This document shows positions 3,385-32,225 of a stretch of DNA of 47,689 nt, piece by piece. The stretch spans positions 1-47,689 of the forward strand of contig JWZX01002429.1 of the NCBI GenBank assembly GCA_001275005.1, written 5' to 3'. A model generated the notes under the pieces. The model saw nothing but the letters and a program-made list of their open reading frames with translations. It searched no databases and was not told the DNA's origin. Origin of the DNA: Chrysochromulina tobinii. Lineage: Eukaryota. The stretch's first letter is position 1. Each line of letters starts with the position of its first letter. A program made the position numbers and the translations under genes.

Positions 3385-3565
3385 TCCGGTCTCGAGAACG
3401 TGACGTGGCGCCCTTTGATTTTGAAACCGGCGAGAATTTTGTCGAATCCTACTCGCAACCATTGTGGAAAAGGCGTCGGAGGTCGTGAAGGCCTGAAGTG
3501 GTTGCCTCATTGTTACACACATAACTTGCGCGAGAGCTCGGCACGAGCCGCCGTCGACTAGGCCA

Positions 3566-6181
3566 ATGCCCTGGTCCTGTGCAGCGTGCACGTATGAAAA
3601 CGTCGACGGTGCACGCAATTGCGAGATATGCCGGACGCCACGGCCGGGCGGCGGTCCGCCGCCGCCGATGGCCGCCGATCCGTTTCCATCGACCGATGCT
3701 TCCGGCAGCCGACTTCTCGACATGGCGCTCGAAGACGGCGCCCCGCGCTCACCGCTCTCGGGCCTCTTTCCGGCCAATCTTCCACTGCCGTCTCTCGAGG
3801 TAGCTCTTACGCCCCATTCTGCCACGCTCCCGCATCTTCATCCGTCAACCGGTCCCTCGGTGAAGATCGCACGCAAACAGGCCAAACGTGCTCAGGCGAA
3901 GCACCCAGACATTACACTCGACGAGTGCACCGCGATCGTTCTCTATACTATGGAAGAGATTCCGCGCGAGACGTCCCTCTACTATGTCCTCAATCTCGCC
4001 CTGCGCAATAAAGTGAGGGCTGCTGTCCGCCCATGGCGCGATTACATCTGGCTCTTGCTTCACGCGCTTCGCAAACTGCCGCCTTCGACCGAGGTCATTG
4101 TCTTCCGCGGCTGCAAAAAGAGCCCGGACGAATTAGGGCTTGAGCTGACCAAGGACTTCGAGTTCACCTGGTCGTCTTTCACCTCGACTGCCACGACGCA
4201 GGGAGTGATGCAGACTTTCTTGGGCCAGTCGGGTCCGCGCACGCTCATGACCATCAAGATGGCTGAGAACTCTGGGCGCGACGTTCGGGACTTTTCTCTG
4301 TATCCAGGAGAGAACGAAATACTTTTCCCCCCAAACTTGTGCTTTGAGGTCGTCGATAGCTTCGACGCCGGAAACCAGCTCATCATGGTGCAGTGCCGGC
4401 AGACAGAAACGGTCGATGTCATCCTCGACTTGAACTCGGCAGGAAACGCCGTCGGTGCATCGGCCGCCAAACCCGGGTCGTCTACGCAGCCGAGCGAGGC
4501 TGGTCAGCTCGAGAAGGCTGTGGTTAAAAGGGCGGTGGACGAAAAGGCGGCGGACGAGCTGAAGCACTGGAAGATGGAACTGGACAAGATGGCCAACGCC
4601 CGCGCGCTTCTCTGCACGGAGCAGGCTCGCGTGCGCCTCATGGCCGCGGCGGCGGCTGATGAGGACGAGTCACTGCGCGACGCCGTGCAAGAGTGGAGGA
4701 ACGCCGTGCAAGCGAGGAACGCCGCGCGTGTCGCCTTGGTCCGCGCGCTCGATGATGCGCTCCGCGTACACGACGAGCGCCACGCCGAGGAGCAGCGGCG
4801 GAGCCTGTCCATGGAGGCGGCCGCGTTGCAGCAGCAGCAGGGGGCGCGCAAGCTCACGCTCGCCGAGCAGCTGCGGCTCGAGTGTCTGCACAGTCAGGTG
4901 CTGCCCGTGCTCGACGAGTGGGTGAAGCAGATCGGCAGAGTGCGCGAGGAGCGCGAGGACTTGGACCGCCACGCTGAACGGCCAAGCACCGATAAGCTGC
5001 ACGCGCTGCATGAGGCATGGCTCACCGCCCATGAAGCATTCGATCTCTTTCAAGCCAGAGAGAAAGATGAAAGGCGCCGTGGGAGTGCATCAGACGCAGC
5101 CATCCAGGTCACCCGCCAAGCGCGACGTGACGTGCAGAGCGCCGAGCGCGCGCTGCACCGGGAGCGCACGATGCTGGCCCAGGTCGCCGCCGCGCACTTC
5201 CCGGAGCTCTTTGCGATGGAGCCGCTGCTGCAAGTGGGCAAGGCCGAGGGCCTGGACGATGATGAAATTCGTGCGGTGCTCGTACTGCGCGAGCTCTCGC
5301 ACTACGAAGATCGGGTAAGTATCAGCGCCAAGGAGGGACGGCACGAGGTTTGGAAGGCGAGCTACGACGGCAAGGCGTGCGTGCTGAGGGAGTACAAGCT
5401 GGACAACCCGTCCGAGTGGAAGCTGCTCGCCAAGGAGGTGAGGCTCCTCAGTCAGCTCTCCCACTGCCCGTTCATTGCCCCCGTCGAGGCCGTCTTTGTG
5501 CAGCACTCCCCCGAGCGGTTATATTTGGCGTACATTCAGCTGCCCTACTTTTCGGGTGGCAACATGCGATCGTGGCTGAGTCGCGAGCCGGCGCCCGAGC
5601 TCTTGCAGCGCAAGGTGCTGCTCGGCCAGCTTTGCGAGGCGCTCCGCCACGTGCACAACCACGGCCTCGCGCACGGCGACGTCAAGCTTGAGAATGTCCT
5701 CGTGTCTCTCGAGGGCGAGCGCGCGACGGCGCACCTTGCCAACTTCGAGTCCGCGCGTCGCCAGCAAAACAGCCTGAGCATGAGCACGGATGGAAGATGC
5801 TTCCACCCTAGTTATTTTTTACCACCATTCACCGAGCTCTACGCGGCGCCGGAGATCCTCAAGGCCAGCAAAGAGGGCCGCGAGCGAGATGCGAAGCCCT
5901 CCGCGATGGGCGACATGTTCTCCTACGGTGTCTGCTGCCTCTTTGCGTGCTGCTTTCCGCCGAATGTCGAGGCGCAGCAGCAAGACATCCGCCGCTTCCG
6001 CGAGGACGGTCGCACGCTCAGCCCGTGGTCGCGCGACAAGGCGAAGCACGCCGACGCGCACTTACCGGACTTACTTGAGAGCCTTCTTGCTGGTGCGGCG
6101 ACCAACGAAGAGGCCCTCGCGCGGCGCCTGAGTGCGAAGCAGACTCTGTTGCATCCATTCCTCGACACGGCTCACGCGTAG
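3566..6181 (+). CDS. RanBP2-type zinc finger + NAD:arginine ADP-ribosyltransferase (ART) domain + coiled coil + protein-kinase-like domain
   Basis: WSCAACTYEN..CEIC (RanBP2 ZnF). AIVLYT..VFRG..WSSFTSTAT..YPGENEILF (R-S-E ART). HGDVKLENVL..LANFE..YAAPE..DMFSYG..LLHPFL (kinase). Confidence 0.85.
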   Translation: MPWSCAACTYENVDGARNCEICRTPRPGGGPPPPMAADPFPSTDASGSRLLDMALEDGAPRSPLSGLFPANLPLPSLEVALTPHSATLPHLHPSTGPSVKIARKQAKRAQAKHPDITLDECTAIVLYTMEEIPRETSLYYVLNLALRNKVRAAVRPWRDYIWLLLHALRKLPPSTEVIVFRGCKKSPDELGLELTKDFEFTWSSFTSTATTQGVMQTFLGQSGPRTLMTIKMAENSGRDVRDFSLYPGENEILFPPNLCFEVVDSFDAGNQLIMVQCRQTETVDVILDLNSAGNAVGASAAKPGSSTQPSEAGQLEKAVVKRAVDEKAADELKHWKMELDKMANARALLCTEQARVRLMAAAAADEDESLRDAVQEWRNAVQARNAARVALVRALDDALRVHDERHAEEQRRSLSMEAAALQQQQGARKLTLAEQLRLECLHSQVLPVLDEWVKQIGRVREEREDLDRHAERPSTDKLHALHEAWLTAHEAFDLFQAREKDERRRGSASDAAIQVTRQARRDVQSAERALHRERTMLAQVAAAHFPELFAMEPLLQVGKAEGLDDDEIRAVLVLRELSHYEDRVSISAKEGRHEVWKASYDGKACVLREYKLDNPSEWKLLAKEVRLLSQLSHCPFIAPVEAVFVQHSPERLYLAYIQLPYFSGGNMRSWLSREPAPELLQRKVLLGQLCEALRHVHNHGLAHGDVKLENVLVSLEGERATAHLANFESARRQQNSLSMSTDGRCFHPSYFLPPFTELYAAPEILKASKEGRERDAKPSAMGDMFSYGVCCLFACCFPPNVEAQQQDIRRFREDGRTLSPWSRDKAKHADAHLPDLLESLLAGAATNEEALARRLSAKQTLLHPFLDTAHA

Positions 6182-14258: not shown

Positions 14259-15032
14259 TCAAGCTGCTGGATGCTCACGCAGCCATGTGGCTGCTTTCTC
14301 TGTGGCAGTGGGGTAATCATCGATCGAGGCGCTCGCCACCATCGAGTAGTAGCGGCGCGCCATCTTCTCGTCTTTCGGGAAGCCCCAGTCGCCAACAGCG
14401 TATGCGCGCCCCAGAATGTAGCACGCGTATTTGCTGCCGCGTGCGGCGGTGTCGCCCATCAGCATAGCGCCACGCACAGGGCACTTTGGCACGCCATACC
14501 CCAGCAAGTAGCACCTGCCAAGGCCGACAGTCCCACATGCATTCACAGCCTCGTGGCTCTTCTCGTACCACTCGAAAGCCTTGGCATCGTCCTTTGCGAG
14601 GCCCTTCTGACCACTCTCGTAACAAACTCCCAGGTTGTACATCGCCGCGCCATCACCAGCCTCGGCCTCACGCAGCATCTCCGCCACCTCCTCCTCCTCC
14701 TCCAGCTTCAGCTTCCACGCGTCAACCTTGTCGCCCGTGAGAGTGCCCGAGGTGACCATCGCGCGGATCATGTTCTTGACCCGCAGCGCCGGCTGCAGCC
14801 TCATGCCCATCGCCAAGTTCGTCACCGGGCTCTTGTGCTGCTGCTTGAGCCACTCCTCGATGGCCGAGCGCTCGTACACGTTGCCGTCCTCTGCCATGAC
14901 GGGGTCGACGGGCAGCGAGAAGGTGATGGGGCAGAGGAACTCGTTCATGGCCTCGTTGACCGCGCTCTTGGTTCGACGTAGCTCCTGCGACGTCTCGTCC
15001 TCGGCAGGCGCGCGGCCGCGCTTGGGCGGCAT
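14259..15032 (-). CDS. U-box + Sel1-like repeat protein (putative E3 ubiquitin ligase), copy 1
   Basis: EFLCPITFSLPVDPVMAEDGNVYERSAIEEWL..SPVTN (U-box). AMYNLGVCYESG..KAFEWYEKS (Sel1). Starts MPPKRGR. Confidence 0.9.
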   Translation of the reverse strand: MPPKRGRAPAEDETSQELRRTKSAVNEAMNEFLCPITFSLPVDPVMAEDGNVYERSAIEEWLKQQHKSPVTNLAMGMRLQPALRVKNMIRAMVTSGTLTGDKVDAWKLKLEEEEEVAEMLREAEAGDGAAMYNLGVCYESGQKGLAKDDAKAFEWYEKSHEAVNACGTVGLGRCYLLGYGVPKCPVRGAMLMGDTAARGSKYACYILGRAYAVGDWGFPKDEKMARRYYSMVASASIDDYPTATEKAATWLREHPAA

Positions 15033-15429
15033 GGCGATGCCGGTGGGCACAAGGAGGAAGGCGCGCACCAACCTCGCCGCTCAACACGACGCTTTAATCT
15101 CGATGAGCGATGACGCGGGGATCCTCGCGCTTACGTTGCTAGCAACAACGCGCGCGCAGAAACTTGCGAAGTCAGAAATATGTCCCGACGCAACATTAAA
15201 CCCGGTACCCAACACCCGATCTCGGAACAGAACTTGCCTCTTGCGTGGCGCCGCGCGCGCGGGCGGTGGGTTCAGTTCAGTTTCAGTTCAGTGGGCACAG
15301 TGAGAGGCAGTGGCAAGGGGCGCAGCCACGCACAGCCTTAGGTTTGGCACAGCCGAGGCCCATGTCACCGAGCTAGCTCAGCCGCACTGAGCCTCACCGA
15401 ACGCAGCACTCAAACTTACCAATGCCAAT

Positions 15430-16206
15430 TCAAGCTGCTGGATGCTCACGCAGCCATGTGGCTGCTTCCTCCTTTGCGTCGTCGGAGCAATCATCGATCG
15501 AGGCGCTCGCCACCATCGAGTAGTAGCGGCGCGCCATATTCTCGTCCTTCGGGAAGCCCCAGTCGCCTTTAGCGTATGCGAGCCCCAGAGTGCAGCACGC
15601 GGCTTTCCTGCCGCGCTCAGCGGCCTGGCTCATCAGCGTACTGGCACGCATGGGGCACTTCGGCACGCCATTCCCTTCCAAGTAGCACCAACCAAGGCTG
15701 CAAGTCCCACTTGCGTGCCCAGCCTCGTGGCTCTTCTCGTACCACTCGAAAGCCTTGGCCTCGTCCTTTGCGAGGCCCTTCGTACCACTCTCGTACCAAA
15801 TCCCCAGGACGCACATCGCATCGCCATGACCAGCCTCGGCCTCACGCAGCATCTCCGCCACCTCCTCCTCCTCCTCCAGCTTCAGCTTCCATGCGTCCAC
15901 CTTGTCACCCGTGAGAGTGCCCGAGCTGACCATCGCGCGGATCATGTTCTTGACCCGCAGCGCCGGCTGCAGCCTCGAGCCCATCGCCAAGTTCGTCACC
16001 GGGCTCTTGCGCTGCTGCTCGAGCCACTCCTCGATGGCCGAGCGCTCGTACACGTTGCCGTCCTCCGCCGTGACGGGGTCGACGGGCAGTGAGAAGGTGA
16101 TGGGGCAGAGGAACTCGTTCATGGCCTCGTTGACCGCGCTCTTGGTTCGACGTAGCTCCTGCGACGTCTCGTCCTCGGCAGGCGCGCGGCCGCGCTTGGG
16201 CGGCAT
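15430..16206 (-). CDS. U-box + Sel1-like repeat protein, copy 2
   Basis: Same architecture; near-identical U-box to copy 1. Confidence 0.9.
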   Translation of the reverse strand: MPPKRGRAPAEDETSQELRRTKSAVNEAMNEFLCPITFSLPVDPVTAEDGNVYERSAIEEWLEQQRKSPVTNLAMGSRLQPALRVKNMIRAMVSSGTLTGDKVDAWKLKLEEEEEVAEMLREAEAGHGDAMCVLGIWYESGTKGLAKDEAKAFEWYEKSHEAGHASGTCSLGWCYLEGNGVPKCPMRASTLMSQAAERGRKAACCTLGLAYAKGDWGFPKDENMARRYYSMVASASIDDCSDDAKEEAATWLREHPAA

Positions 16207-16592
16207 CGCGACGCCGGTGGGCACCAAGGAGAAAGGCGGCACCAACCTCGCCGCTCAACACGACGCGTATGATCTCGATGCCCAATGACGCGGGGTTCCT
16301 CGCGCTTACGTTGCTTGCAACAACGCGCGCGCAGAAACTTGCGGAACTCAGAAATATGTCCCGACGCAACATCAAACCCGGTACCCAACACCCGATCTCG
16401 AAACAGAACTTGTGTGGCGCCGCGCGCGCGGGCGGTGGGCACAGTGAGAGCTGAGAGGCAGTGGCACACCGGGCGCAGCCACGCACAGCCTTAGGTTTCG
16501 GAGGTTTGGCACAGCCGAGGCCCATGTAACCGACGCTAGCTCAGCCGCACTGAGCCTCACCGAACGCAGCACTCAAACGTACCAATGCCGAG

Positions 16593-17961: not shown

Positions 17962-20463
17962 TCAGATGCTCCAGAACCTATCCTCTGGCGTGTCCAAGTC
18001 TGCAACTTCTGTCGGCTGCGCCGTGCGCTGAGGCGGCGGTAGCGCAGAGACCCGCGGCATCGAGATGGGCGGTAAGTCTCTCGAATTCGGCTCGAACTTC
18101 GCCCGGCTTTGGTCGAAACTCGCGCGGCGCGCCACCGCCAGGCGCCAGGAGCGAGCTCGCTCGAGGGCCGCGTGCTTCGCAGGTGGGGGTGGGGCAGACA
18201 CAGGGTCAGACTCTGAAGTGGGCGACTTCTCCTGTGTGGACGCACGCTTCGTGCGGGTGAACGAAGGCCGGCGCCGGAATAAAGAAGTGTGACTCTGCTT
18301 GACGTCGGTGGACTGCGCATGCTCATCTGGCTCATCTGCTGCGAGCATCTGGAGCAACTCATCCGCTTGTTCGAGCCACTGCAGCTGTCTGTGGAACGTT
18401 TGGCTATAGGAGCTCTCGACGTGGAGTATGGGGTTCGTCGAGGCTTCTGCCTTCTCTCGCAACTCGCGCTGCAGCTTCGACCGTAGCATGAACAGATCGA
18501 GCTGCAGGCTACTACCTGTCGCACCACCTGATCCCGAGGAGCCGTTACCTGCTGCACCACCTCCCTTGAACGAGGCTGCATGCACCGAGGCCCCCTCGAC
18601 GTCTGCTTCCTTGACTGACGCCGCGGCCGGGGCAGCCGCTAGACTGGCCGGCGCAGACCAAAAGCCCAGGGACGGCGCATGGCTCAGAGTGGACAGGGAG
18701 ACCCGGCGCAAGAACGAGGCCGTGCGCCTCAGCTTCACGCCACCTCCGACCGTCGCTGTGGCCTCAGAAGGCGGAAGGGCGACCGGTATGGGTAGCGAGG
18801 GCGACGGCTCGATTTCGAGCACGAGCCTTCCCACCGCCACCTCGGCTTGCTCGAGCCACTGTAGACGGCTTTGGAAGCGCTGGCTGTAGGGGCTCTCCAC
18901 GTCCAGCACCGGGCTCGTCGAAGCCTCGATCTTCTCTTGCAATTGGCGCCGCAGCTTTGCTCGTAGCTCGCTCAGGCCGTGTGGCAGGCTACCTGCTCCG
19001 GCGGCCTCCTCGGCAAGGCTCGCCGCGGGCGGCAGATAGTCAAAGGCGGGCGAAAGGCCAACCGTTGAGCCGACCGTTTCTACAGCGCGGGTCGCAGCAT
19101 CACCGCTGCCGATCGTTGAGCCGACCGTTCCTACAGCGAGAACCACGGCATCATCACTGCCAATGTCAACACGACGGCGCGGCAGGCGGAGTTGCGTGCC
19201 CGTCTCGGCGCCCGTCTCGGTACAAGTCGAGTGATGCATGGGCGGCGCTGTCGGCTGAGCGCTCGCATTCCTGGGAGCCTGCTCGGGGTGCGACAATCCC
19301 TTCGTCCCATTTGTGACCGACTCCAAAGCGGGTGAGTGTTCCGTCCCGTGCTGACACAGCGCCTTGATCGCGCGCCAGCCACGTAGCAGCTTCAGCCTTG
19401 TCGCGTGTGATGTCGCGAGGGAGGCGGTGGCGAAGGCGGTCGCGGCATGCGACCGAACATACGGCCGGCCCTCCAAGCAAAACGCGCGTGCGGTCGCCTG
19501 ACCAGCGTGCGCGCGTGCACTTGTTTGGAAGGCCCGAAACCCGCGCCGCAGCCGACGAAGCCCCTCCCATGTGGCAAGGGCTCTGAGAGCTTCGTTGGTA
19601 GAATTGTAACTGGAGGTGGGATCAGTGGCGGGCCTCGGCGTCGACCTCGGCGACGGCCGCGACGCTTCTTCTCGCCGCACCAGCCGAGTGCGCACGACCA
19701 GAGGGCTAAGTGGCTCCCAGCCCCTCGGCACGACCTGCAGCATGCCTTCAGGCGACTGGCGTGGCACCTCTTCGGTGTTCACCAGCGTGGAGGAGGCGCG
19801 CCGAAGGCCAGTGAGGGAGAAGAGCGACGTAGGGCGAGGCGAGGCGGGCGAGGCGGGCGAGGCGGGCGAGGCGGGCGAGGCGTTCGAGGATCGGCGAGGC
19901 GCTTCTTCTGGGCGCACGAGATGACGGCGCGCCACGGGCACTTCTTCGATGACGACAAGCGAGGTGCGCTTGAGGGCCTTGAGACGCGGCATTTGTTTGA
20001 GCCGCACGAGCCGACGGCGCTGTTCGTGCCACCACGCTAGCCAGCGCACCCAGTGCCGCGTCACGCCGGTGCACTGCATCGGACGCCGTGATGAGATCGC
20101 GCTGATGAGATCGATGAGCCTGTGCCTCGTAGCAGCCTCGTGCGTCCACGTCGCCATGACCGCTTCCACCGCGCGAATGACTGCGCGCGTACGACCGCGA
20201 TCGCGCAAGTGCTTGTTGAACCGTCGTTGGCGCGACAACTCTATCCAACGAGTCATCGCAGCTGCGAGCTCCGCGTTCCGCAAGCGCCGCCCTGCAAGAC
20301 TGAGAACAACGTCCACCGCCTGGAAGCGCATCTGGTTGTGGCCAAACGGGTCCAGTGCACCTTGGACTCGGGCGTGGACCCCGAAACGCCACAGTAGGCC
20401 TTGGACCCTATCGGACAGACTGCTCACGTGCTGGCTGGCGCCCGCCTCACCGTTTCCGACCAT
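17962..20463 (-). CDS. Hypothetical protein (833 aa) with a duplicated internal ~45-aa module
   Basis: Long ATG-started ORF between recognised genes. LRAKLRRQLQEKIEASTSPVLDVESPYSQRFQSRLQWLEQAE recurs as LRSKLQRELREKAEASTNPILHVESSYSQTFHRQLQWLEQAD. Confidence 0.65.
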   Translation of the reverse strand: MVGNGEAGASQHVSSLSDRVQGLLWRFGVHARVQGALDPFGHNQMRFQAVDVVLSLAGRRLRNAELAAAMTRWIELSRQRRFNKHLRDRGRTRAVIRAVEAVMATWTHEAATRHRLIDLISAISSRRPMQCTGVTRHWVRWLAWWHEQRRRLVRLKQMPRLKALKRTSLVVIEEVPVARRHLVRPEEAPRRSSNASPASPASPASPASPRPTSLFSLTGLRRASSTLVNTEEVPRQSPEGMLQVVPRGWEPLSPLVVRTRLVRREEASRPSPRSTPRPATDPTSSYNSTNEALRALATWEGLRRLRRGFRAFQTSARAHAGQATARAFCLEGRPYVRSHAATAFATASLATSHATRLKLLRGWRAIKALCQHGTEHSPALESVTNGTKGLSHPEQAPRNASAQPTAPPMHHSTCTETGAETGTQLRLPRRRVDIGSDDAVVLAVGTVGSTIGSGDAATRAVETVGSTVGLSPAFDYLPPAASLAEEAAGAGSLPHGLSELRAKLRRQLQEKIEASTSPVLDVESPYSQRFQSRLQWLEQAEVAVGRLVLEIEPSPSLPIPVALPPSEATATVGGGVKLRRTASFLRRVSLSTLSHAPSLGFWSAPASLAAAPAAASVKEADVEGASVHAASFKGGGAAGNGSSGSGGATGSSLQLDLFMLRSKLQRELREKAEASTNPILHVESSYSQTFHRQLQWLEQADELLQMLAADEPDEHAQSTDVKQSHTSLFRRRPSFTRTKRASTQEKSPTSESDPVSAPPPPAKHAALERARSWRLAVARRASFDQSRAKFEPNSRDLPPISMPRVSALPPPQRTAQPTEVADLDTPEDRFWSI

Positions 20464-20812
20464 CCTGCCGAGGAAGAACGTTTCGTTGAATTTTGTTTTG
20501 CTTGCGGAGAATCAAATTTGGAGGTTTCGTCGGCCGGGTGCTCTTGCATGCAATCCCAGTCGAACTCGTCTGGACAATAGCCCTCTTTCTTCTACCCTAC
20601 ACATACACAGTGCACGCACAATTGTGCACGTATACTGACTGTTCATGCAACAACACTCGCCTTTGGATTCTCGAATGCGAGTATCCGAATAGTCTCAACA
20701 GTCGCGGCGCCGACTCCGCCTCGCCTCGCCGTCCGGTCCCTCGTGCGACGTGGAAGGGCCCACACGCAATCGCAAACAGCTCGAGCCCAGGCGTACACGC
20801 CCCCTCTAGCTC

Positions 20813-23800
20813 CTACCAGTTATCGCGCTTCCCGTCCTTCCTGCGCCCCTCGAAAGTTGCCTTGAGCTCCTTCTCGAAGTTGGCCGACTGGCTGAAGAAC
20901 CCTTGCACCACCTCGACGCTCTCCTCGGCTTCGTCAACCGCAGGGTCGGCGTAGATGCCGCCGCCGCCCACCACTATGGGCGGCAGTCCTTCCTTGGCGC
21001 GCCAGTGATTCGAGTCGCGCAGTGAGTACGAGCAGCCGCAGTACTCTTGCTTGTAGAAGCTCTGCTCGGCGTTGATTCGGTACCTGAGGAGGTCATCAGT
21101 GGGTCATTAGTGGGTCATCAGTGGGTCATTAGTGGGTCATTAGTGGGTCATTAGTTGATTCGGTACCTGAGGAGGCAGGCAATCCAGAGGTAATCAGTGG
21201 GGCGACCAGAGAGGCCATCAGAGGCCATCAGAGGTCATCAGTGGGGCGACCAGCGAGGCCATCAGTGGTCATCAGAGGTCATCAGCTCGAGCCCTCCTCA
21301 TCGTACTTGCGCTGCGTCATCTCGGCCGTCTGCCAGTCGGAGACCCAATACTCGACCCCCTCGTACTTTGCCGCCGCCTTGAGCCCCGAATCGTTCACCT
21401 GCTTCTCATCCTTCCACCGGCTCGTCGCGTTCGTCGTCGTGAACGAGTCGAACCCGTGCTCATGCGCATAGAGCGCGGTGCGCTCGAGCCGCATGTCGAA
21501 GCACATGGAGCAGCGAGCGCCACGCTCGGGGCAAAACTCCATCCCCTTCGCCCGTCGGTACCTGTGGGGAAGTGGCAGGGGGCGTCGTGGTGAGCACTTG
21601 CATGCACGAGGGGGCAGAACTCCATTCCTTTCGCCCGTCGGTACCACTCGTCCACGTCGCCGTCGACGTCCACAAAGTCGATGCCGAGCTTGGCGGCGAA
21701 TCGCTTATTCTCCTCCTTGCGGATCTCGTACCTGATGAGACAGGCAATCAGAGAGGTCATTAGGGGTCATCAGGGCCCGTAAGGGTGTCCTCAAGGGCAA
21801 TCAGAGGCCATCAGAGGTCATTAGGGTTCGTTCGGGCCCGTAAGGGTGTCCTCAAGGGCAATCATGGATCCAATTCGGAGCTCGTACTCCTTTCGCGGGT
21901 GGATGTTTGGGTTGTAGAAGAAGATTGTCACATCATGGCCGGCGGTCACCATCGCCTCGACCATCGCGCCGCTGCACGGCGCACAGCACGAGTGCAGCAG
22001 CACCTTGCGCCCCGTGCGCAGGCCAAGATGCTCGGGCAGTGCGGGAGGCGATGCGGGAGGCGATGCGGGAGGCGATGCATGCGTGGTCGACATCGATTGC
22101 TGTGGCCGCTCGTCGGGCGCCGGCATGGGCACCTCCCAACGGACTTTGCGCACCGAGGGCAGCGCCGCGGCGACTGCCGCAACGAGCCGCTCGCCTGCAG
22201 ACCTCGTGGGCGTGTGGGGAAAGAAGAGGCAGGCATCGCCGTACGAGAGGAAGCGGTAGCGCTGCGCAATCGCATGCGCGTACGCGGCGTGCACCTCGGC
22301 TGAGGAGCCCAGCAGCGCGCTGACCAGCAGCATGAGCGTCGAGTCGGGCGCATGGAAGTTGGTGATGAGCGCATCAATCACGCGGAACTGGTAGCCAGGT
22401 GCGATGCACAGCGCCGTCGAGCCACTGACAGAGGTGCACCCGCGCGCCGTAGCGGCGCTTGCCAGCCCTCTGAGCACCATGGATGGCGACGGGCTGCCCA
22501 CGACGGCGCTACCCACGACGGCGCTACCCACGACGGCGCTGCCCACAACGGCGCTGCCCACAACGGCGCTACCCGTGCCCGCTGCCGCCTCGTATGGCGT
22601 CCATTGCTCGAGATGGCCGAGCTCGAGCGCCGTCTCGAGCGCCGTCCCGCTCGCCAGCGCGCCCGTGCCAAACGTCTCACCAGCCGCGCTCGGCGCCTCG
22701 CAAGCCACATTCAGTTCCCCAAGACGGTGCACACCAAACCAGTACAGGGACTCGAGCACGCGCGTCGAGGTCGTCCCTACCGGTACGATCGGCCGCCCCT
22801 CGTCGAGGCTCCGCGCGATCGCCGCGAGCTCGTGCACGCGCATCGAGAAGCGCTCTGCATGCATCTGGTGCTCAGCAAGGCGCGGGGCGGCGATGGGCTT
22901 GAAGGTGCCCGCGCCCACATGCAGTGAAAGTCTTGAGCTTGCCACCCCCGCGGCGCTCAGGCGGTCGAGGAGCGCACTGGTGAAGTGGAGTCCCGCGGTC
23001 GGAGCTGCCACGCTGCCCTCGTGCGCAGCCGAGGCATAGACGGCTTGATAGCGCGTGGCGTCCGACGCCTCGGGCTGGCGCTGGATGTAGGGCGGGAGCG
23101 GAATGGCGCCGAGGGTGCTGAAGGCGTCCCGCAGAAGCAGCGGTGACGTGGCAGCGGCGCCGGCGGCGGCGGCGGCGGCGGAGGAGGAGGAGGAGGAGGA
23201 GGGCAGCGATGAGGCGAGAGCGTCCGTCGAGGCGGCTATCTGATCACCCGATGTGGAGGGCACGAGGTCGAGGCGCACAGCGACCTCGACGCCAGGCGAC
23301 TCTCCCTCCTCCCGCCACTCAGAGACCACTCGCTCGACGCGGAGCGAGAGTGCTAGCGCACTCGCTGTCGCCGCCGCCGTGGCGCGCAGCTCAAGCCCGG
23401 TCGCCTCCAGAGGCAGCCTCACCATCGCCCGCCAGAGCTGGCCACACACTGGCTGGGACAGCGCGTGTGACGCGTCGGCGCCATCCTCGGGAGCGAGGAA
23501 CATCACTTCCACAGGCGCGTCGGCGGCGCACGAGCCCATGCGAACAGGGCGTGCGAGCATGCGAGCGGCGAAGACGCGTGACTCATTGAAGACCAGATGC
23601 GCATCGGGGGGCAGCAGTCGAGGCAGGTCCGAAAACGTTGCGTCATGGAGCCTGCTGCCCTCCGCAACGGCGGTCGCGGGCAGCCGCACCAACAGCCTCG
23701 CCGCGTCGCGAGGCTCGGCGGCGTGCTGTGCGATCAGCTCGTCTGGGAGGTCATAGCGGAAGGCTGCCGACGCCATGCCCAGTGGCGAATGCGCTGCGTC

Positions 23801-23899
23801 GCCGCTGCCGTGTGGGAAATAGCCGGGCTGCAAGTGGACCGTGTGCACTGGCCGTCTGCAAAGGCGCGTGCTCAAAGGTTGCAGGCGAGCGCGCAACAT
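20813..23899 (-). CDS. queA-queH: QueA-QueH fusion: SAM:tRNA ribosyltransferase-isomerase + epoxyqueuosine reductase (DUF208); 4 exons (23899-21888, 21731-21645, 21561-21307, 21083-20813), 874 aa
   Basis: QueA motifs: [86 protein letters not shown]. QueH motifs: [45 protein letters not shown]. Three GT-AG introns splice in frame (2625 nt). Confidence 0.92.
21562..21610 (-). repeat. Dispersed intronic element TGCATGCAAGTGCTCACCAC..CCCCACAG (other copies 7133-7176 +, 44101-44148 +, partial 41013-41024 +)
   Basis: The same core occurs in sense orientation near the 3' end of introns or inserts in three unrelated genes. Confidence 0.75.
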
Positions 23900-24234
23900 C
23901 AGCGCAGTCGACCTCCCGAGGGAGGAGTGCGTGTGCGCCTTCTGGTTTTGCTGAAAATGTGCTGTGAAGATTAGCGTGAACGAACATTTTCTGATGCCAG
24001 ACCTTTGTACAGTACTGGTGGTTGGGCTGTGGTGTACATGTAGCTCGAAGCGTTCTCGGAAAGGGTGTGGCTTCTTCTACACACTTGCAGTCGACTCCAA
24101 CGACGATTACCTCAACGAACCCCAAACCTATGCACCTGGAGGCCCACGCTCCTCCTCAACACCCTATTTCTGCTAGCCCTACCCAGCTGCCGAGTGTTAA
24201 CAGCCAATTCACACAAACTCCTACAGCGGACGCC

Positions 24235-24831
24235 ATGTTCTCGCTGTTCATGGGCTTCTATCGCTACCTATTCCAGAAGCATCAGTTCCAGGTGCTCATA
24301 GTCGGCCTCGACTATGCCGGCAAGACGAGCGTGCTGGAGCAGATCAAGACCATCTTCTGCGGAATGGAGCCGCTGCCGCCCGGCAAGATCACGCCGACAA
24401 TCGGGCTCAACATAGGGAAAGTAAGCATTGACGGGGCTAATCTTGTCTTCTGGGACGTCGGCGGCGCACGCAGCCTACGCTCGCTCTGGGAGCGCTACTA
24501 CGGCGAGGCGCACGGCCTCCTTTTCGTCATAGACGCCGCCGACACGGCACGCCTTGAGGAGGCACGGGAAGTGCTTCGGCAGCTGCTCAACAATGCGGAG
24601 CTCGCCGGCATCCCCCTGCTCGTGTTTGCCAACAAGCAGGACGCCGCGGGCGCGCTGACGCCGCACGAGGTGCAAGCGCGCTTTGGCCTGCACCACGCTG
24701 AAGGCAGCAGCCAGCCGCAGCATGTGCTCGGCACAACGGCTATCCGCGGCGAGGGCATCGACGAAGGCGTGCGCTGGCTCGCAGAGACGCTGCGCACATC
24801 GCCGCGGGCGCTCGCGCTGCAAACCGGATGA
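24235..24831 (+). CDS. ARFRP1: ADP-ribosylation factor-related protein 1 (Arf-like small GTPase)
   Basis: MFSLFMGFYRYLF N-terminus (no Gly2), GLDYAGKT, ITPTIGLNIG, FWDVGG, SLWERYY, ANKQD. Confidence 0.88.
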   Translation: MFSLFMGFYRYLFQKHQFQVLIVGLDYAGKTSVLEQIKTIFCGMEPLPPGKITPTIGLNIGKVSIDGANLVFWDVGGARSLRSLWERYYGEAHGLLFVIDAADTARLEEAREVLRQLLNNAELAGIPLLVFANKQDAAGALTPHEVQARFGLHHAEGSSQPQHVLGTTAIRGEGIDEGVRWLAETLRTSPRALALQTG

Positions 24832-29220: not shown

Positions 29221-32100
29221 TCATCGCATGGGCACGCCTACCGCCACCGGCGGCTCGCCGCAGTGACGAGAGCTCGGGTGAGCCGCCAACGACAGCAGCC
29301 ACGCGGGTGGACGGGCGACGGCCTCCTCTTCGTCATCAGTGCCACGCAGCGAGTAGATCTCGTCGAGATCTCCCGTCCACATCTCGCCGTCATCGTAGTG
29401 CACCGTGGCGCGGTGGCCCTGCAGCCTCAAAATCGTCCCCGCGTACCAGCCATCATCGCCACCCTCATCGCGCGTCCATTGGGTCTGCACCGCCTCGCCT
29501 GATGGGGGAAGTCATCAGTGCTCATCAGTCGCAATCAGTGGCCATTGGGTCTGCACCCTACATCCCTCATAGGCGAGCTCGCCGTCGGCCAACACGGGCG
29601 GCGTGCCTCGCGCCGCACCGCCGCCGCCGCTGCTGCTGCTGTCGCCGCCGATGCTGCTGCTGCTGCTGCTGCTGCTGCCGCTGATGCGCGGGTAATGCCG
29701 AGTGCCACAGCGTGCGTCTTCCTCGTCGCTCGAGGTTGCGCCTCGGCTGAGGAGACGAGCAGCTGCTGCATGGTGGGCGACAGTGGCGGCGGCGCTGGCG
29801 CTGACGCTGCTGCTTGAGGGGACGTCGTCGACGGCATTCTGGAAGCCAAGCACGCCCATGGCTACGAGTGCCGCCATCAGCCAGAACGCCACGGATTGGA
29901 ACACAAGCGCCATGACCGGTGAGCAAACGCCTGCCCAGCACGACGCGTCGGCTGTCGCCGGGGGCGCGGCTCGCAGCCCTACGAGAGGGACCGGCGGCCC
30001 CCCTGACGCGTCCGAGGCGCCTACGGGCGGGAAGACGGCGAGAGAGTGCACGCGCAGCTGCAGCGGCCAGCGAGCGTCCGAGTGCAGCTTGTGTGCACAG
30101 GGCTCCAGCAGTGCACACCGCTGTGAGTCCAAAGGCGGTGTGAAGAAGAGCGGCTCGAGTAACACAAAGCGATCGTAGTCGCTCGCCAGGCCGCGCGTCA
30201 GAAGGTGGCCACGCTGGTGCGTGTGCACGAGCCCACCATGCACGAGGGCATGGGCGCCGTACATGTATGCCCCCGCCCCGAGGCTGGGCGGACTGCCGCC
30301 GCTGGCGCCACCGCTGGCGCCGCTCCCATCATGCGCGCCGCCTCCGCCGCCGCCTCCGCCGCCGCTCCCTGCGCCGCGGCTGCCGCCAGTGAGCGCCTGA
30401 TGGTGGGGGGCCGCGTGGGAGTGCCGATGCGGCATGCGCAGCACGTGGGCAACGGCAAATCCCAAGGCCACGTCGCGTACGACGGAGTGCTGGTAGGACG
30501 GTGCGATCAGGTAAGGATGCAAGCGATGAGGATGCAAGCCACCACCGACGAACCTATAAGGATGGGCAGCGGCCGCGGCACCAAAAGAACTGGCGGCAGG
30601 GAGAGTGCGCACGGTGGGGAACGTCTGATGGTAGGCATGTGACGCGAAGGCACTCGGAAATGACGAAGCCGTGTGCGGCAGCCGCCCCTGTGCCAGCGCG
30701 GGTACTCCATGGACGACTGGTATGCCATGTGTCACCGTACCGCCTACTGTCGAACTGGCGCGGAAGGGTGACGTGAAAGAGCCAGCGCCCACGCGCGCGC
30801 CGACGCTGCCCCCAAAGTGGCCTATGTGGCCAATGCTGCCACCCTTGAGCCGGCGCCCAACACGACGCCGGTCCACGTGAAGACCTCTGGGTGCCTCGGA
30901 TGGACTCTGATGACCTCTGATGACTTCTGATGACCTCTGATGGCCTCTGTGTGCCTCGGATGGACTCTGATGACCTCTGATGACTTCTGATGACCTCTGA
31001 TGGCCTCTGGGTGCCTCGGATGGACTCGGGTTGGAGACGGACAGCCGGCGAGAGCTTGCGTCGAAGACCTGCACCGGTGCCGCCGCCGAGTGGGCGCTCG
31101 AGGACGTGCCCTGCGCGGGAAGAGCGGAAGCATCGGCCGTGGAAGCATCGGCCGCCATCTTCTGAGCAATCCATTTCGCCAAGGTGCCGCTGCCCATCCC
31201 ATAGCCGCCTGGCAAACGTCTGTAGTCTCGCGTCTGAATCTTCGGCGGGGCGCCCCAGTGCGCGGGGAAACGACCGCCGGGCGTGGCGGCGATCCGCACG
31301 GGCGTGGCGGTGGTCGGCGTGGGCGCGGCGACGACCGTGGCAGAGGTCGTGGCAGAGGTTGCGGCAGGGGTCGTGGCGGCTGCGGCGGTCGTGGCGGCTG
31401 TGGAAGGTGAGAAAGGAGTCCCTAACAAGGAAGAGGAGGTCGCGGCGGCTGTGGAAGGTGCCGCCTCGTTCTCAGCCAGAGCCCACGGCGGCGCGTCGTC
31501 GGGACCCACCTCGAGGCTCGTCAAGGGCAGCAGCACGGCGCCGCTTGCGTCGCTCACTGAGATGTTCGCCCTTGCATAGGAGCCGGACGCAAGCAGCAGC
31601 ACGAGCCGGTAGGCCGTCTCGGGCGCCACATGCACGGGCGTGCGCAGCTCGATCGAGGTGGGCGCTGCGAGCGCGGCCGAGGATGCTACGCCGGCGGCCT
31701 TGATAGGACATGCGGTGCCCAGCTCGCCGCCGTCGCTGCGAAGGGTGAAGGCACTCCGCTTGAACTGGGTGCCACCATCGCACATCTCGAGCTCATGGTA
31801 GGGCGCATCTGCGAGCGACAACGGTGGCGTGGATGCGGGCGCGATGGCCGCCGCAAGCAGAAAACAGGCGCAGGCGAACCCTCCGAAGGAGCGGCAAATG
31901 GTTGGCCGGAACGAGGTTGTGAGCTGCGCTGCTAGCCAGCCCAACAACATGGCGATGGTGAGATAATCCGAATGGATGGGCGACAGCATGCGAATGGGTA
32001 GAAATACGAGCACGAGCAGCAAGAGGACGCCACCCGGGTGCTCAGGACATTCGTCCGCGGCGAGCGTGAAGCGACGAAGGAGCGTCTGGCTACGCCGCAT
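29221..32100 (-). CDS. Multi-pass membrane protein with low-complexity ectodomain and C-terminal Tudor-like domain (at least one intron near 29500-29560)
   Basis: N-terminal hydrophobic segments and a late TM (VMALVFQSVAFWLMAALVAMGVLGF). Last exon VQTQWTRDEGGDDGWYAGTILRLQGHRATVHYDDGE is Tudor-like. Acceptor CCCCATCAG at about 29499. Confidence 0.6.
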
Positions 32101-32225
32101 GCCGAGAGTGGGCTTCCGCTTAGAGCAACGAATTCACATGAACACACACACACACTCAACGACGCGTTGACAAGTAAGCACGCACACTGTATTGACAGGC
32201 GTTCCTGCAGCTGTGAATTGCACAA

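Follow-up and report, generated by a model that had tools for sequence, protein, structure and literature searches.

Can a eukaryote finish queuosine (Q) on its own tRNAs? In papers up to 2026 eukaryotes are still described, in the accessible text, as having no Q biosynthetic enzymes and as relying on queuine salvage alone (PMC10639084, PMC13737055). The question is raised by a gene of the alga Chrysochromulina tobinii, on contig JWZX01002429.1 of assembly GCA_001275005.1; the whole stretch analyzed, positions 1–47,689, is called the window here. A preliminary description, made from the sequence without database searches, had read region 20813–23899 as an in-frame fusion of QueA and QueH, which catalyze the last two steps of bacterial Q synthesis. 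We find that this is a resident, spliced and transcribed nuclear gene, that the same fusion is common to five eukaryotic lineages, and that its product probably completes Q on mitochondrial tRNAs, starting from the precursor preQ1.

Gene structure and expression

The four exons of the fusion gene, on the minus strand, join into a 2625-nt frame whose sole stop is terminal. The encoded protein of 874 aa has, in order, a presequence-like start, a QueA domain, a 72-aa linker and a QueH domain (Table 1). In the polyA RNA run X11, a 1447-nt contig covers 20582–22477 in four pieces and skips 223, 83 and 156 nt; as it lacks all three introns, the C-terminus of QueA (from about residue 475) is joined to the end of QueH in RNA. 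The 83-nt skip is confirmed by run X12 and the 223-nt skip by run X13, and neither is found in the DNA run X1, the long contig pieces of which equal the window with 0 differences. At intron 3 the RNA uses the distal acceptor, not the duplicate at 21167. RNA contigs also extend to 23913–23937, upstream of the first ATG, which is thus included. The gene is expressed in RNA runs of three studies; no whole-gene contig occurs among the RNA contigs listed, and, being assembled, these contigs show neither RNA level nor transcript ends.

The GC content at third codon positions (GC3) is 0.80 and 0.86 in the two halves of the gene, close to the 0.81 of the neighboring ARF-like gene, and the adjoining genes (ARF-like GTPase, U-box/Sel1, kinase) are eukaryotic. 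A protein of Chrysochromulina parva that was annotated independently (EukProt, 875 aa) shares this architecture, with 97% identity in the part encoded by exon 1. The preliminary description had called this a resident nuclear gene with three introns, which the RNA skips and the DNA run bear out, and had proposed RNA evidence across the domain junction and introns as a check, which is now supplied by the X11 contig, bridging the domains with the three introns removed.

Domain identity and integrity

Both domains are recognized by Pfam. Exon 1 scores 298 bits for Queuosine_synth (cut-off 25) and, at its end, 46 bits for the start of QueH (cut-off 23.5); exon 3 scores 78.5 bits for QueH, exon 4 scores 20 bits, under the cut-off, and exon 2 is without a match. 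The QueH half keeps all its Cys motifs, namely CCxxC (C638/639/642), CxxC (C717/720) and CxC (C800/802), which align to those of Thermotoga maritima QueH and which we take to be metal-site ligands. These motifs, the Pfam scores (the profile check that had been proposed) and the splice model together confirm the in-frame fusion claimed earlier.

The modeled QueH domain superimposes on T. maritima QueH (PDB 7lc5) with a root mean square deviation of 1.7 Å and a TM score of 0.91 by target. Among the PDB titles for the T. maritima protein are C9S and D13N mutants; the position of Asp13 is occupied by Cys here, and also in 80/80 of the nearest bacterial QueH retrieved. At its C-terminus the domain is extended by about 60 aa; in 166 of the 181 eukaryote-type QueH domains this tail has NW as its last two residues. 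According to the accessible text of PMC5615194, the QueH family carries out cobalamin-independent reduction of epoxyqueuosine.

The QueA half matches PDB QueA structures (1yy3, 1vky, 1wdi) in both sequence and fold. It has a lineage-specific insertion, and its catalytic core is intact: in a 97%-identical relative, P0066, 76 of 81 conserved canonical QueA positions are retained (a column being counted when at least 92% of 25 canonical sequences agree). None of the five differences falls at a column invariant in all 25. In the model of the linker, in P0066 numbering, a helix spans residues 572–591, and the predicted local distance difference test (pLDDT) score is below 50 over 591–629. The presequence-like start, the C-terminal QueH extension and the paralogous lineage of the QueA half, discussed below, are points that the preliminary description missed.

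Distribution among eukaryotes

A query with the first 45 residues of QueH against proteins of 368–1173 aa gave 60 matches, 41 of them with both Pfam domains. The fusion is common to five eukaryotic lineages: haptophytes (C. parva, Diacronema lutheri), pelagophytes (Pelagomonas calceolata, Aureococcus anophagefferens), a chlorophyte (Cymbomonas tetramitiformis), a choanoflagellate (Stephanoeca diplocostata) and dinoflagellates (Symbiodinium spp., with extra domains ahead of QueA). Because Stephanoeca is known from a transcriptome alone, contamination from prey is possible in that case. Some carriers bear automatic database labels such as epoxyqueuosine reductase or queH.

Each half is also found alone. 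Stand-alone eukaryote-type QueH occurs in Tetraselmis, Heterosigma, Thalassiosira, a dinoflagellate and a foraminiferan (among the best 120 of 5765 matches), some of the short ones perhaps being fragments of fusions, and stand-alone QueA of the same lineage as the fused one in Galdieria, Cyanidioschyzon, Nannochloropsis and Aplanochytrium.

A second eukaryotic fusion joins an NMT1/THI5-like binding domain, FolD and pterin-4a-carbinolamine dehydratase to QueA, with or without QueH. It is carried by proteins P0238, P0240, P0241, P0247, P0248, P0250, P0278, P0337, P0014 and P0219, from Symbiodinium and from eukaryote-like sequences. This architecture links QueA to folate and pterin metabolism, and its binding domain might serve to bind a precursor.

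Origin of the fusion

In an unrooted tree of 28 + 35 rows, the eukaryotic QueH sequences group together, apart from the nearest bacterial rows, with a Shimodaira–Hasegawa-like approximate likelihood ratio test (SH-aLRT) support of 100. In a QueH tree with 74/181 eukaryote-type and 14/80 bacterial rows kept, all fused rows retained sit in the eukaryotic clade. The nearest bacterial QueH belong to Rickettsiales, Midichloriaceae and Chlamydiota and to a range of gamma- and betaproteobacteria, in a GTDB scan that covered 6/64 parts. Midichloriaceae, Chlamydiota and Rickettsiales lie nearest in the tree, no donor being singled out among them.

The QueA half groups with a longer lineage (about 410 aa), the Atlas clusters of which are mostly from Bacteroidota, and not with canonical QueA. 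Among 121 Bacteroidota genomes, 22 carry this long QueA (L087–L108). A quick LG+G4 tree (59 of 128 rows) unites 14 fused and 9 other eukaryote-type rows in a clade with SH-aLRT 95, to which Galdieria, Nannochloropsis and three further rows are added with SH-aLRT 86; the placement of the Cyanidioschyzon cluster is not settled. The subgroup of Stephanoeca, Cymbomonas and P0019 has SH-aLRT 98 in both the QueA and the QueH tree, and a group of four around P0066 has 99 and 96 in the two trees. Such matching subgroups indicate that the two halves were inherited together, and since both halves lie in eukaryotic clades in which these subgroups recur, the fusion is judged to be old, not a recent one-off transfer. 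The fused state requires six changes on the QueA tree, three of them forced by strong branches, and some of the six probably reflect truncated gene calls.

The trees and relatives support a bacterial origin of both halves, as had been supposed, with bacterial relatives for each. A private acquisition by this alga is not supported: the fusion is common to five lineages, and the nearest bacterial kin differ between the QueA and QueH halves. Among the fused rows kept in the QueH tree, drawn from proteins of 368–1173 aa, none is bacterial, which is not proof of absence, and a search of viral contigs for close relatives of the QueH half found none.

One of 80 bacterial QueH loci has overlapping queA and queH genes, in a metagenome-assembled genome (MAG) of Simkania (L038:4893–6714). 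On another contig of this MAG, a BL-type tRNA-guanine transglycosylase (TGT), the only TGT of the genome, lies next to YhhQ (L084:324–2128). The Simkania operon was rejected as a direct source of the fusion: its QueA is canonical and falls outside the long lineage with SH-aLRT 100. On the trees, then, it appears as a bacterial parallel and not as a donor. The gene set suggests a preQ1-using BL-TGT, unless a contig is misbinned. The C-terminal tail of the Simkania QueH resembles the eukaryotic one, and in the tree this QueH clusters with Midichloriaceae.

Predicted location and proposed function

The first 25 residues of the fusion protein include 5 Arg and no Asp or Glu, and there is no hydrophobic signal stretch. 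We scored presequence-like starts by a home-made rule (net charge of at least +3 and at most one acidic residue in the first 25 residues), applied to fused proteins with a Met start and at least 20 aa ahead of QueA, others being omitted. By this simple rule, and with near-duplicates in the sets, 19 of 22 fused proteins pass, as against 11 of 78 stand-alone eukaryotic QueH, a contrast that points to mitochondria. The protein of the window also passes. The choanoflagellate carrier has no plastid, and mitochondria offer S-adenosylmethionine (SAM), iron-sulfur (Fe-S) cluster assembly and bacterial-type tRNAs. For C. tobinii, the accessible text of the mitochondrial genome report gives 25 encoded tRNAs (PMC4226036).

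We suggest that the fusion protein matures mitochondrial preQ1-tRNA to Q-tRNA from salvaged preQ1, which on the sequence evidence we regard as probable. The Arg-rich N-terminus would direct import into mitochondria, where a TGT, probably a chlamydial-type BL-TGT like those reported from algal mitochondria, would insert preQ1 at position 34 of tRNA Asp, Asn, His and Tyr, the preQ1 being supplied by bacterial prey or neighbors. The QueA domain would then move and isomerize the ribosyl group of SAM, yielding epoxyqueuosine, and the tethered Fe-S QueH domain would carry out a cobalamin-free reduction of the epoxide to Q, while the linker would hold the intermediate tRNA close to the second site. 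The gain would be twofold, in that precursors beyond queuine become usable and preQ1-tRNA, in which guanine is unable to replace preQ1, is cleared. The acceptance of preQ1 by human TGT in vitro (PMC8136771, accessible text) and the mitochondrial targeting predicted for the separate Chloropicon enzymes (PMC12301720) agree with this scheme. C. tobinii is described as phagotrophic and as requiring external B12 (PMC4580454, accessible text). The B12-independent conversion of preQ1 to Q put forward in the preliminary description is supported as likely. The strongest reason to think that the QueA half would carry out the QueA step is its joining to QueH.

A BL-TGT of this organism was looked for in two ways. 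A protein search from the Simkania TGT is uninformative on haptophytes, the best 120 of 7886 matches all being at least 70% identical and the named ones chlamydial. A motif scan of metagenomes gave 101 BL-TGT loci, some of them eukaryote-like and GC-rich, with N-terminal extensions. None of the 101 matched the window by blastn, tetranucleotide likeness singled out none, and repeat motifs in the style of the window occurred no more than twice per locus and not at all in the GC-rich candidates. Two loci, L129 and L192, have a similar GC3 (0.80–0.82), but no tie to the organism could be established.

Several observations weigh against a mitochondrial maturation of preQ1-tRNA by both domains. Three of the 22 scored fused proteins fail the presequence rule, and Cymbomonas, P0021 and P0013 begin at QueA without an extension. 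The 67 of 78 stand-alone eukaryotic QueH (set P0026–P0211) that have no presequence-like start are not explained by it. The BL-TGT pocket has been argued to suit queuine (PMC12301720, accessible text), so that QueA and QueH would be optional. A binning error is possible in the bacterial parallel, as the Simkania MAG has its genes on two contigs and a QueH that falls with Midichloriaceae. Finally, all but one of the 22 Bacteroidota carriers of long QueA (21) have another QueA-family gene besides; no queuosine gene was found near it among 65 flanking open reading frames (about 1.5 kb on each side in 22 genomes, E ≤ 1e-8); and P0066 misses both QueA equivalog cut-offs, with 314.7 bits against 324 for NF001140 and 251.9 bits against 267.45 for TIGR00113, as do, also narrowly, three further fused proteins. 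Because of these scores we file the domain as QueA-family, long lineage, and not as a canonical QueA equivalog.

The points on location bear on the alternative that the enzyme acts on cytosolic tRNA, either in addition or exclusively, translation starting for instance at Met42, and that it rescues tRNAs that had been given prey preQ1 by QTRT1/2. A second Met directly before QueA is present here and in several homologs, and some homologs start at QueA; most stand-alone eukaryotic QueH, as just noted, look cytosolic; and human TGT accepts preQ1 in vitro, with guanine unable to displace it (PMC8136771, accessible text). We nevertheless consider this unlikely, since the presequence-like start recurs across distant lineages in most scored fused proteins, the first ATG lies within the RNA contigs, short N-termini may be truncated gene calls, and, as far as the text of PMC8136771 was accessible, there was at its time no evidence of preQ1 in eukaryotic cells.

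Somewhat less probable still is that the QueA half is a paralog with another substrate, only QueH belonging to the Q pathway, where it might, for instance, reduce salvaged epoxyqueuosine. This would agree with the second copy in Bacteroidota, the lack of Q genes among the neighbors scanned, the missed cut-offs and the lineage-specific insertion, as well as with the partners to which the same QueA is fused elsewhere: NMT1-like, FolD and pterin-4a dehydratase domains in eukaryotes, and HPPK, EPSP synthase or Ham1 in bacteria. Against it stand the unchanged QueA core, a Bacteroidota genome (G120) in which the long type is the only QueA match, and the fusion itself, since a join to the next enzyme of a pathway across five lineages is a classic sign of consecutive steps.

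Service to plastid tRNAs is very improbable. Most named carriers are algae, and plastids retain bacterial-type tRNAs; however, plastid import in haptophytes requires a hydrophobic signal peptide, which the sequence does not have, the choanoflagellate transcriptome contains the fusion, and neither half shows a cyanobacterial signal among the relatives retrieved. A dispensable relic, or two neighbors joined by chance, is equally hard to credit: the patchy distribution and the six changes on the QueA tree might speak for it, but the open frame, the splicing, the expression, the intact motifs and the 41 relatives with the fusion already largely refute it.

Beyond the mitochondrial role proposed for the fusion, stand-alone eukaryotic QueH is possibly a cytosolic epoxyqueuosine reductase, judging from the N-termini. 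The stand-alone QueH set includes diatom, dinoflagellate and foraminiferan proteins. A wider scheme, which we offer tentatively and consider rather doubtful, would have protists of at least five lineages finish Q: the ancient QueA-QueH unit would turn bacterial preQ1 into Q in mitochondria, tRNA turnover would feed queuine to the cytosol, and the stand-alone, cytosol-like QueH would repair salvaged epoxyqueuosine.

Relation to known systems

The preliminary description knew of no described eukaryotic system of this kind, and here it was mistaken. Mitochondrion-targeted BL-TGT, QueA, ‘QueG’ and YhhQ have been predicted in Chloropicon, with orthologs in red algae, in a proposed mitochondrial route of preQ1 salvage for which Galdieria is also named (Turmel et al., 2025; PMC12301720, of which the accessible text is meant throughout). 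That in silico study, the one paper to propose such a route, covers a few green and red algae and terms its result the first evidence for a bacterial-type Q pathway in mitochondria. Its reductase is named ‘QueG’, ‘QueG/H’ being written once, and ‘QueH’ does not occur in the accessible supplement text. The system described here is like this route in pairing, in algae, a nuclear QueA with an epoxyqueuosine reductase of predicted mitochondrial location, and the Galdieria QueA (P0262) joins the clade of the fused proteins at the SH-aLRT of 86 given above. It differs in that the Chloropicon genes are separate and the reductase is called QueG, whereas here a single polypeptide holds a clear QueH, and in its range of haptophytes, pelagophytes, dinoflagellates, a chlorophyte and a choanoflagellate.

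Compared with bacterial QueA (EC 2.4.99.17; PF02547), the QueA half shares the fold and conserved motifs and departs from the canonical enzyme in its long lineage, insertions, presequence-like start, fused QueH and scores under the NCBIfam equivalog cut-offs. The QueH half likewise has the fold and three Cys motifs of bacterial QueH/DUF208 (PF02677; 7lc5), and is set apart from T. maritima QueH by Cys in place of Asp13, its own eukaryotic clade and the C-terminal extension. With eukaryotic queuine salvage (QTRT1/QTRT2, QNG1) the proposed route would share its end product, Q34 on GUN tRNAs, and its bacterial precursor. There, finished queuine is inserted, whereas here the cyclopentene ring would be built on the tRNA.

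In open-licence PMC and bioRxiv articles we found no description of a QueA-QueH fusion or of a eukaryotic QueH, and no paper on the long QueA paralog. The accessible parts of PMC13737055, PMC6593275, PMC11130926 and PMC7694415 contain nothing on eukaryotic QueA or QueH or on the fusion, and a Physarum genome paper mentions, in its accessible part, preQ1 biosynthesis enzymes (PMC4758236). A late Q pathway in eukaryotes has thus been proposed in print before; the novelty lies in the bifunctional form, the identification of the reductase as QueH, the breadth of five lineages and the link to an uncharacterized QueA lineage.

Other features of the window

The introns of the fusion gene share a peculiar pattern. 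All three start with GTAC, as does the exon after each. The first 12 nt of intron 1 copy the start of exon 2 (11/12), and the first 34 nt of intron 2 equal the start of exon 3 at 31/34 positions, the three differences all being at synonymous third positions; intron 3 has, with its second acceptor, 13 nt that repeat the beginning of exon 4. Very high DNA depth marks the intron bodies as repeats found throughout the genome. The pattern resembles Introner insertion in which the donor would be supplied by the target-site duplication. Introners have been described in Chrysochromulina, but with 4-bp duplications and the opposite polarity (bioRxiv 10.1101/2022.06.06.494994, accessible text). Other genes and open frames of the window are listed with the parts of the fusion gene in Table 1.

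Table 1. Parts of the QueA-QueH fusion gene, followed by other features of the window.
Feature	Position	Strand	Evidence
N-terminal extension, aa 1–41, putative mitochondrial presequence	23777..23899	-	Composition; pLDDT <50 over 1–36 in model
Second Met, aa 42, directly before QueA	23776–23774	-	Sequence
QueA domain, aa 46–560, long Bacteroidota-type lineage, low-complexity insertions	22220..23764	-	Pfam PF02547, 298 bits; PDB QueA matches (sequence and fold); trees
Linker, aa 561–632: one predicted helix, then disordered Pro/Ala/Ser-rich part	22004..22219	-	Model; X11 contig (record 9) bridges linker
Exon 1, 2012 nt, coding for the putative presequence, QueA, the linker and QueH up to its 38th residue, CCxxC included	21888..23899	-	
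Intron 1, 156 nt, GT-AG, phase 2	21732..21887	-	Skipped in X11 contig (record 9)
Exon 2, 87 nt, QueH	21645..21731	-	
Intron 2, 83 nt, GT-AG, phase 2	21562..21644	-	Skipped in X11 and X12
Exon 3, 255 nt, QueH core with CxxC	21307..21561	-	Pfam PF02677, 78.5 bits
Intron 3, 223 nt, GT-AG, phase 2; inner duplicate acceptor at 21167	21084..21306	-	Skipped in X11 and X13
Exon 4, 271 nt: CxC motif, eukaryote-type C-terminal extension, stop codon	20813..21083	-	
Probable 3' untranslated region	20582..20812	-	X11 and X13 RNA contigs extend to 20582 and 20597
Open frame, 894 codons: ADP-ribosyltransferase-like domain, then protein kinase domain	3497–6181	+	PF01129, 43.7 bits (first domain)
Two tandem near-identical U-box + Sel1-repeat genes	14259–15080, 15430–16254	-	
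Intronless ARF-family GTPase gene, head-to-head with QueA-QueH gene, ~335 bp between	24235–24831	+	
Long stop-free frames of 1484, 849 and 872 codons	8039–12493, 17962–20511, 29515–32133	-	No Pfam match

Significance

A single gene with both late steps makes the existing in silico proposal directly testable, and extends it to haptophytes, pelagophytes, dinoflagellates and a choanoflagellate, major plankton groups among them. The fusion also hints at what the second QueA copy of Bacteroidota may do. For C. tobinii, which depends on external B12, the proposed function would show a B12-free route to Q in an alga. Should the wider scheme, in which protists finish Q, prove true, algae would be net makers of a micronutrient thought to be made solely by bacteria, and the function of the long QueA of Bacteroidota would become clear from the fusion.

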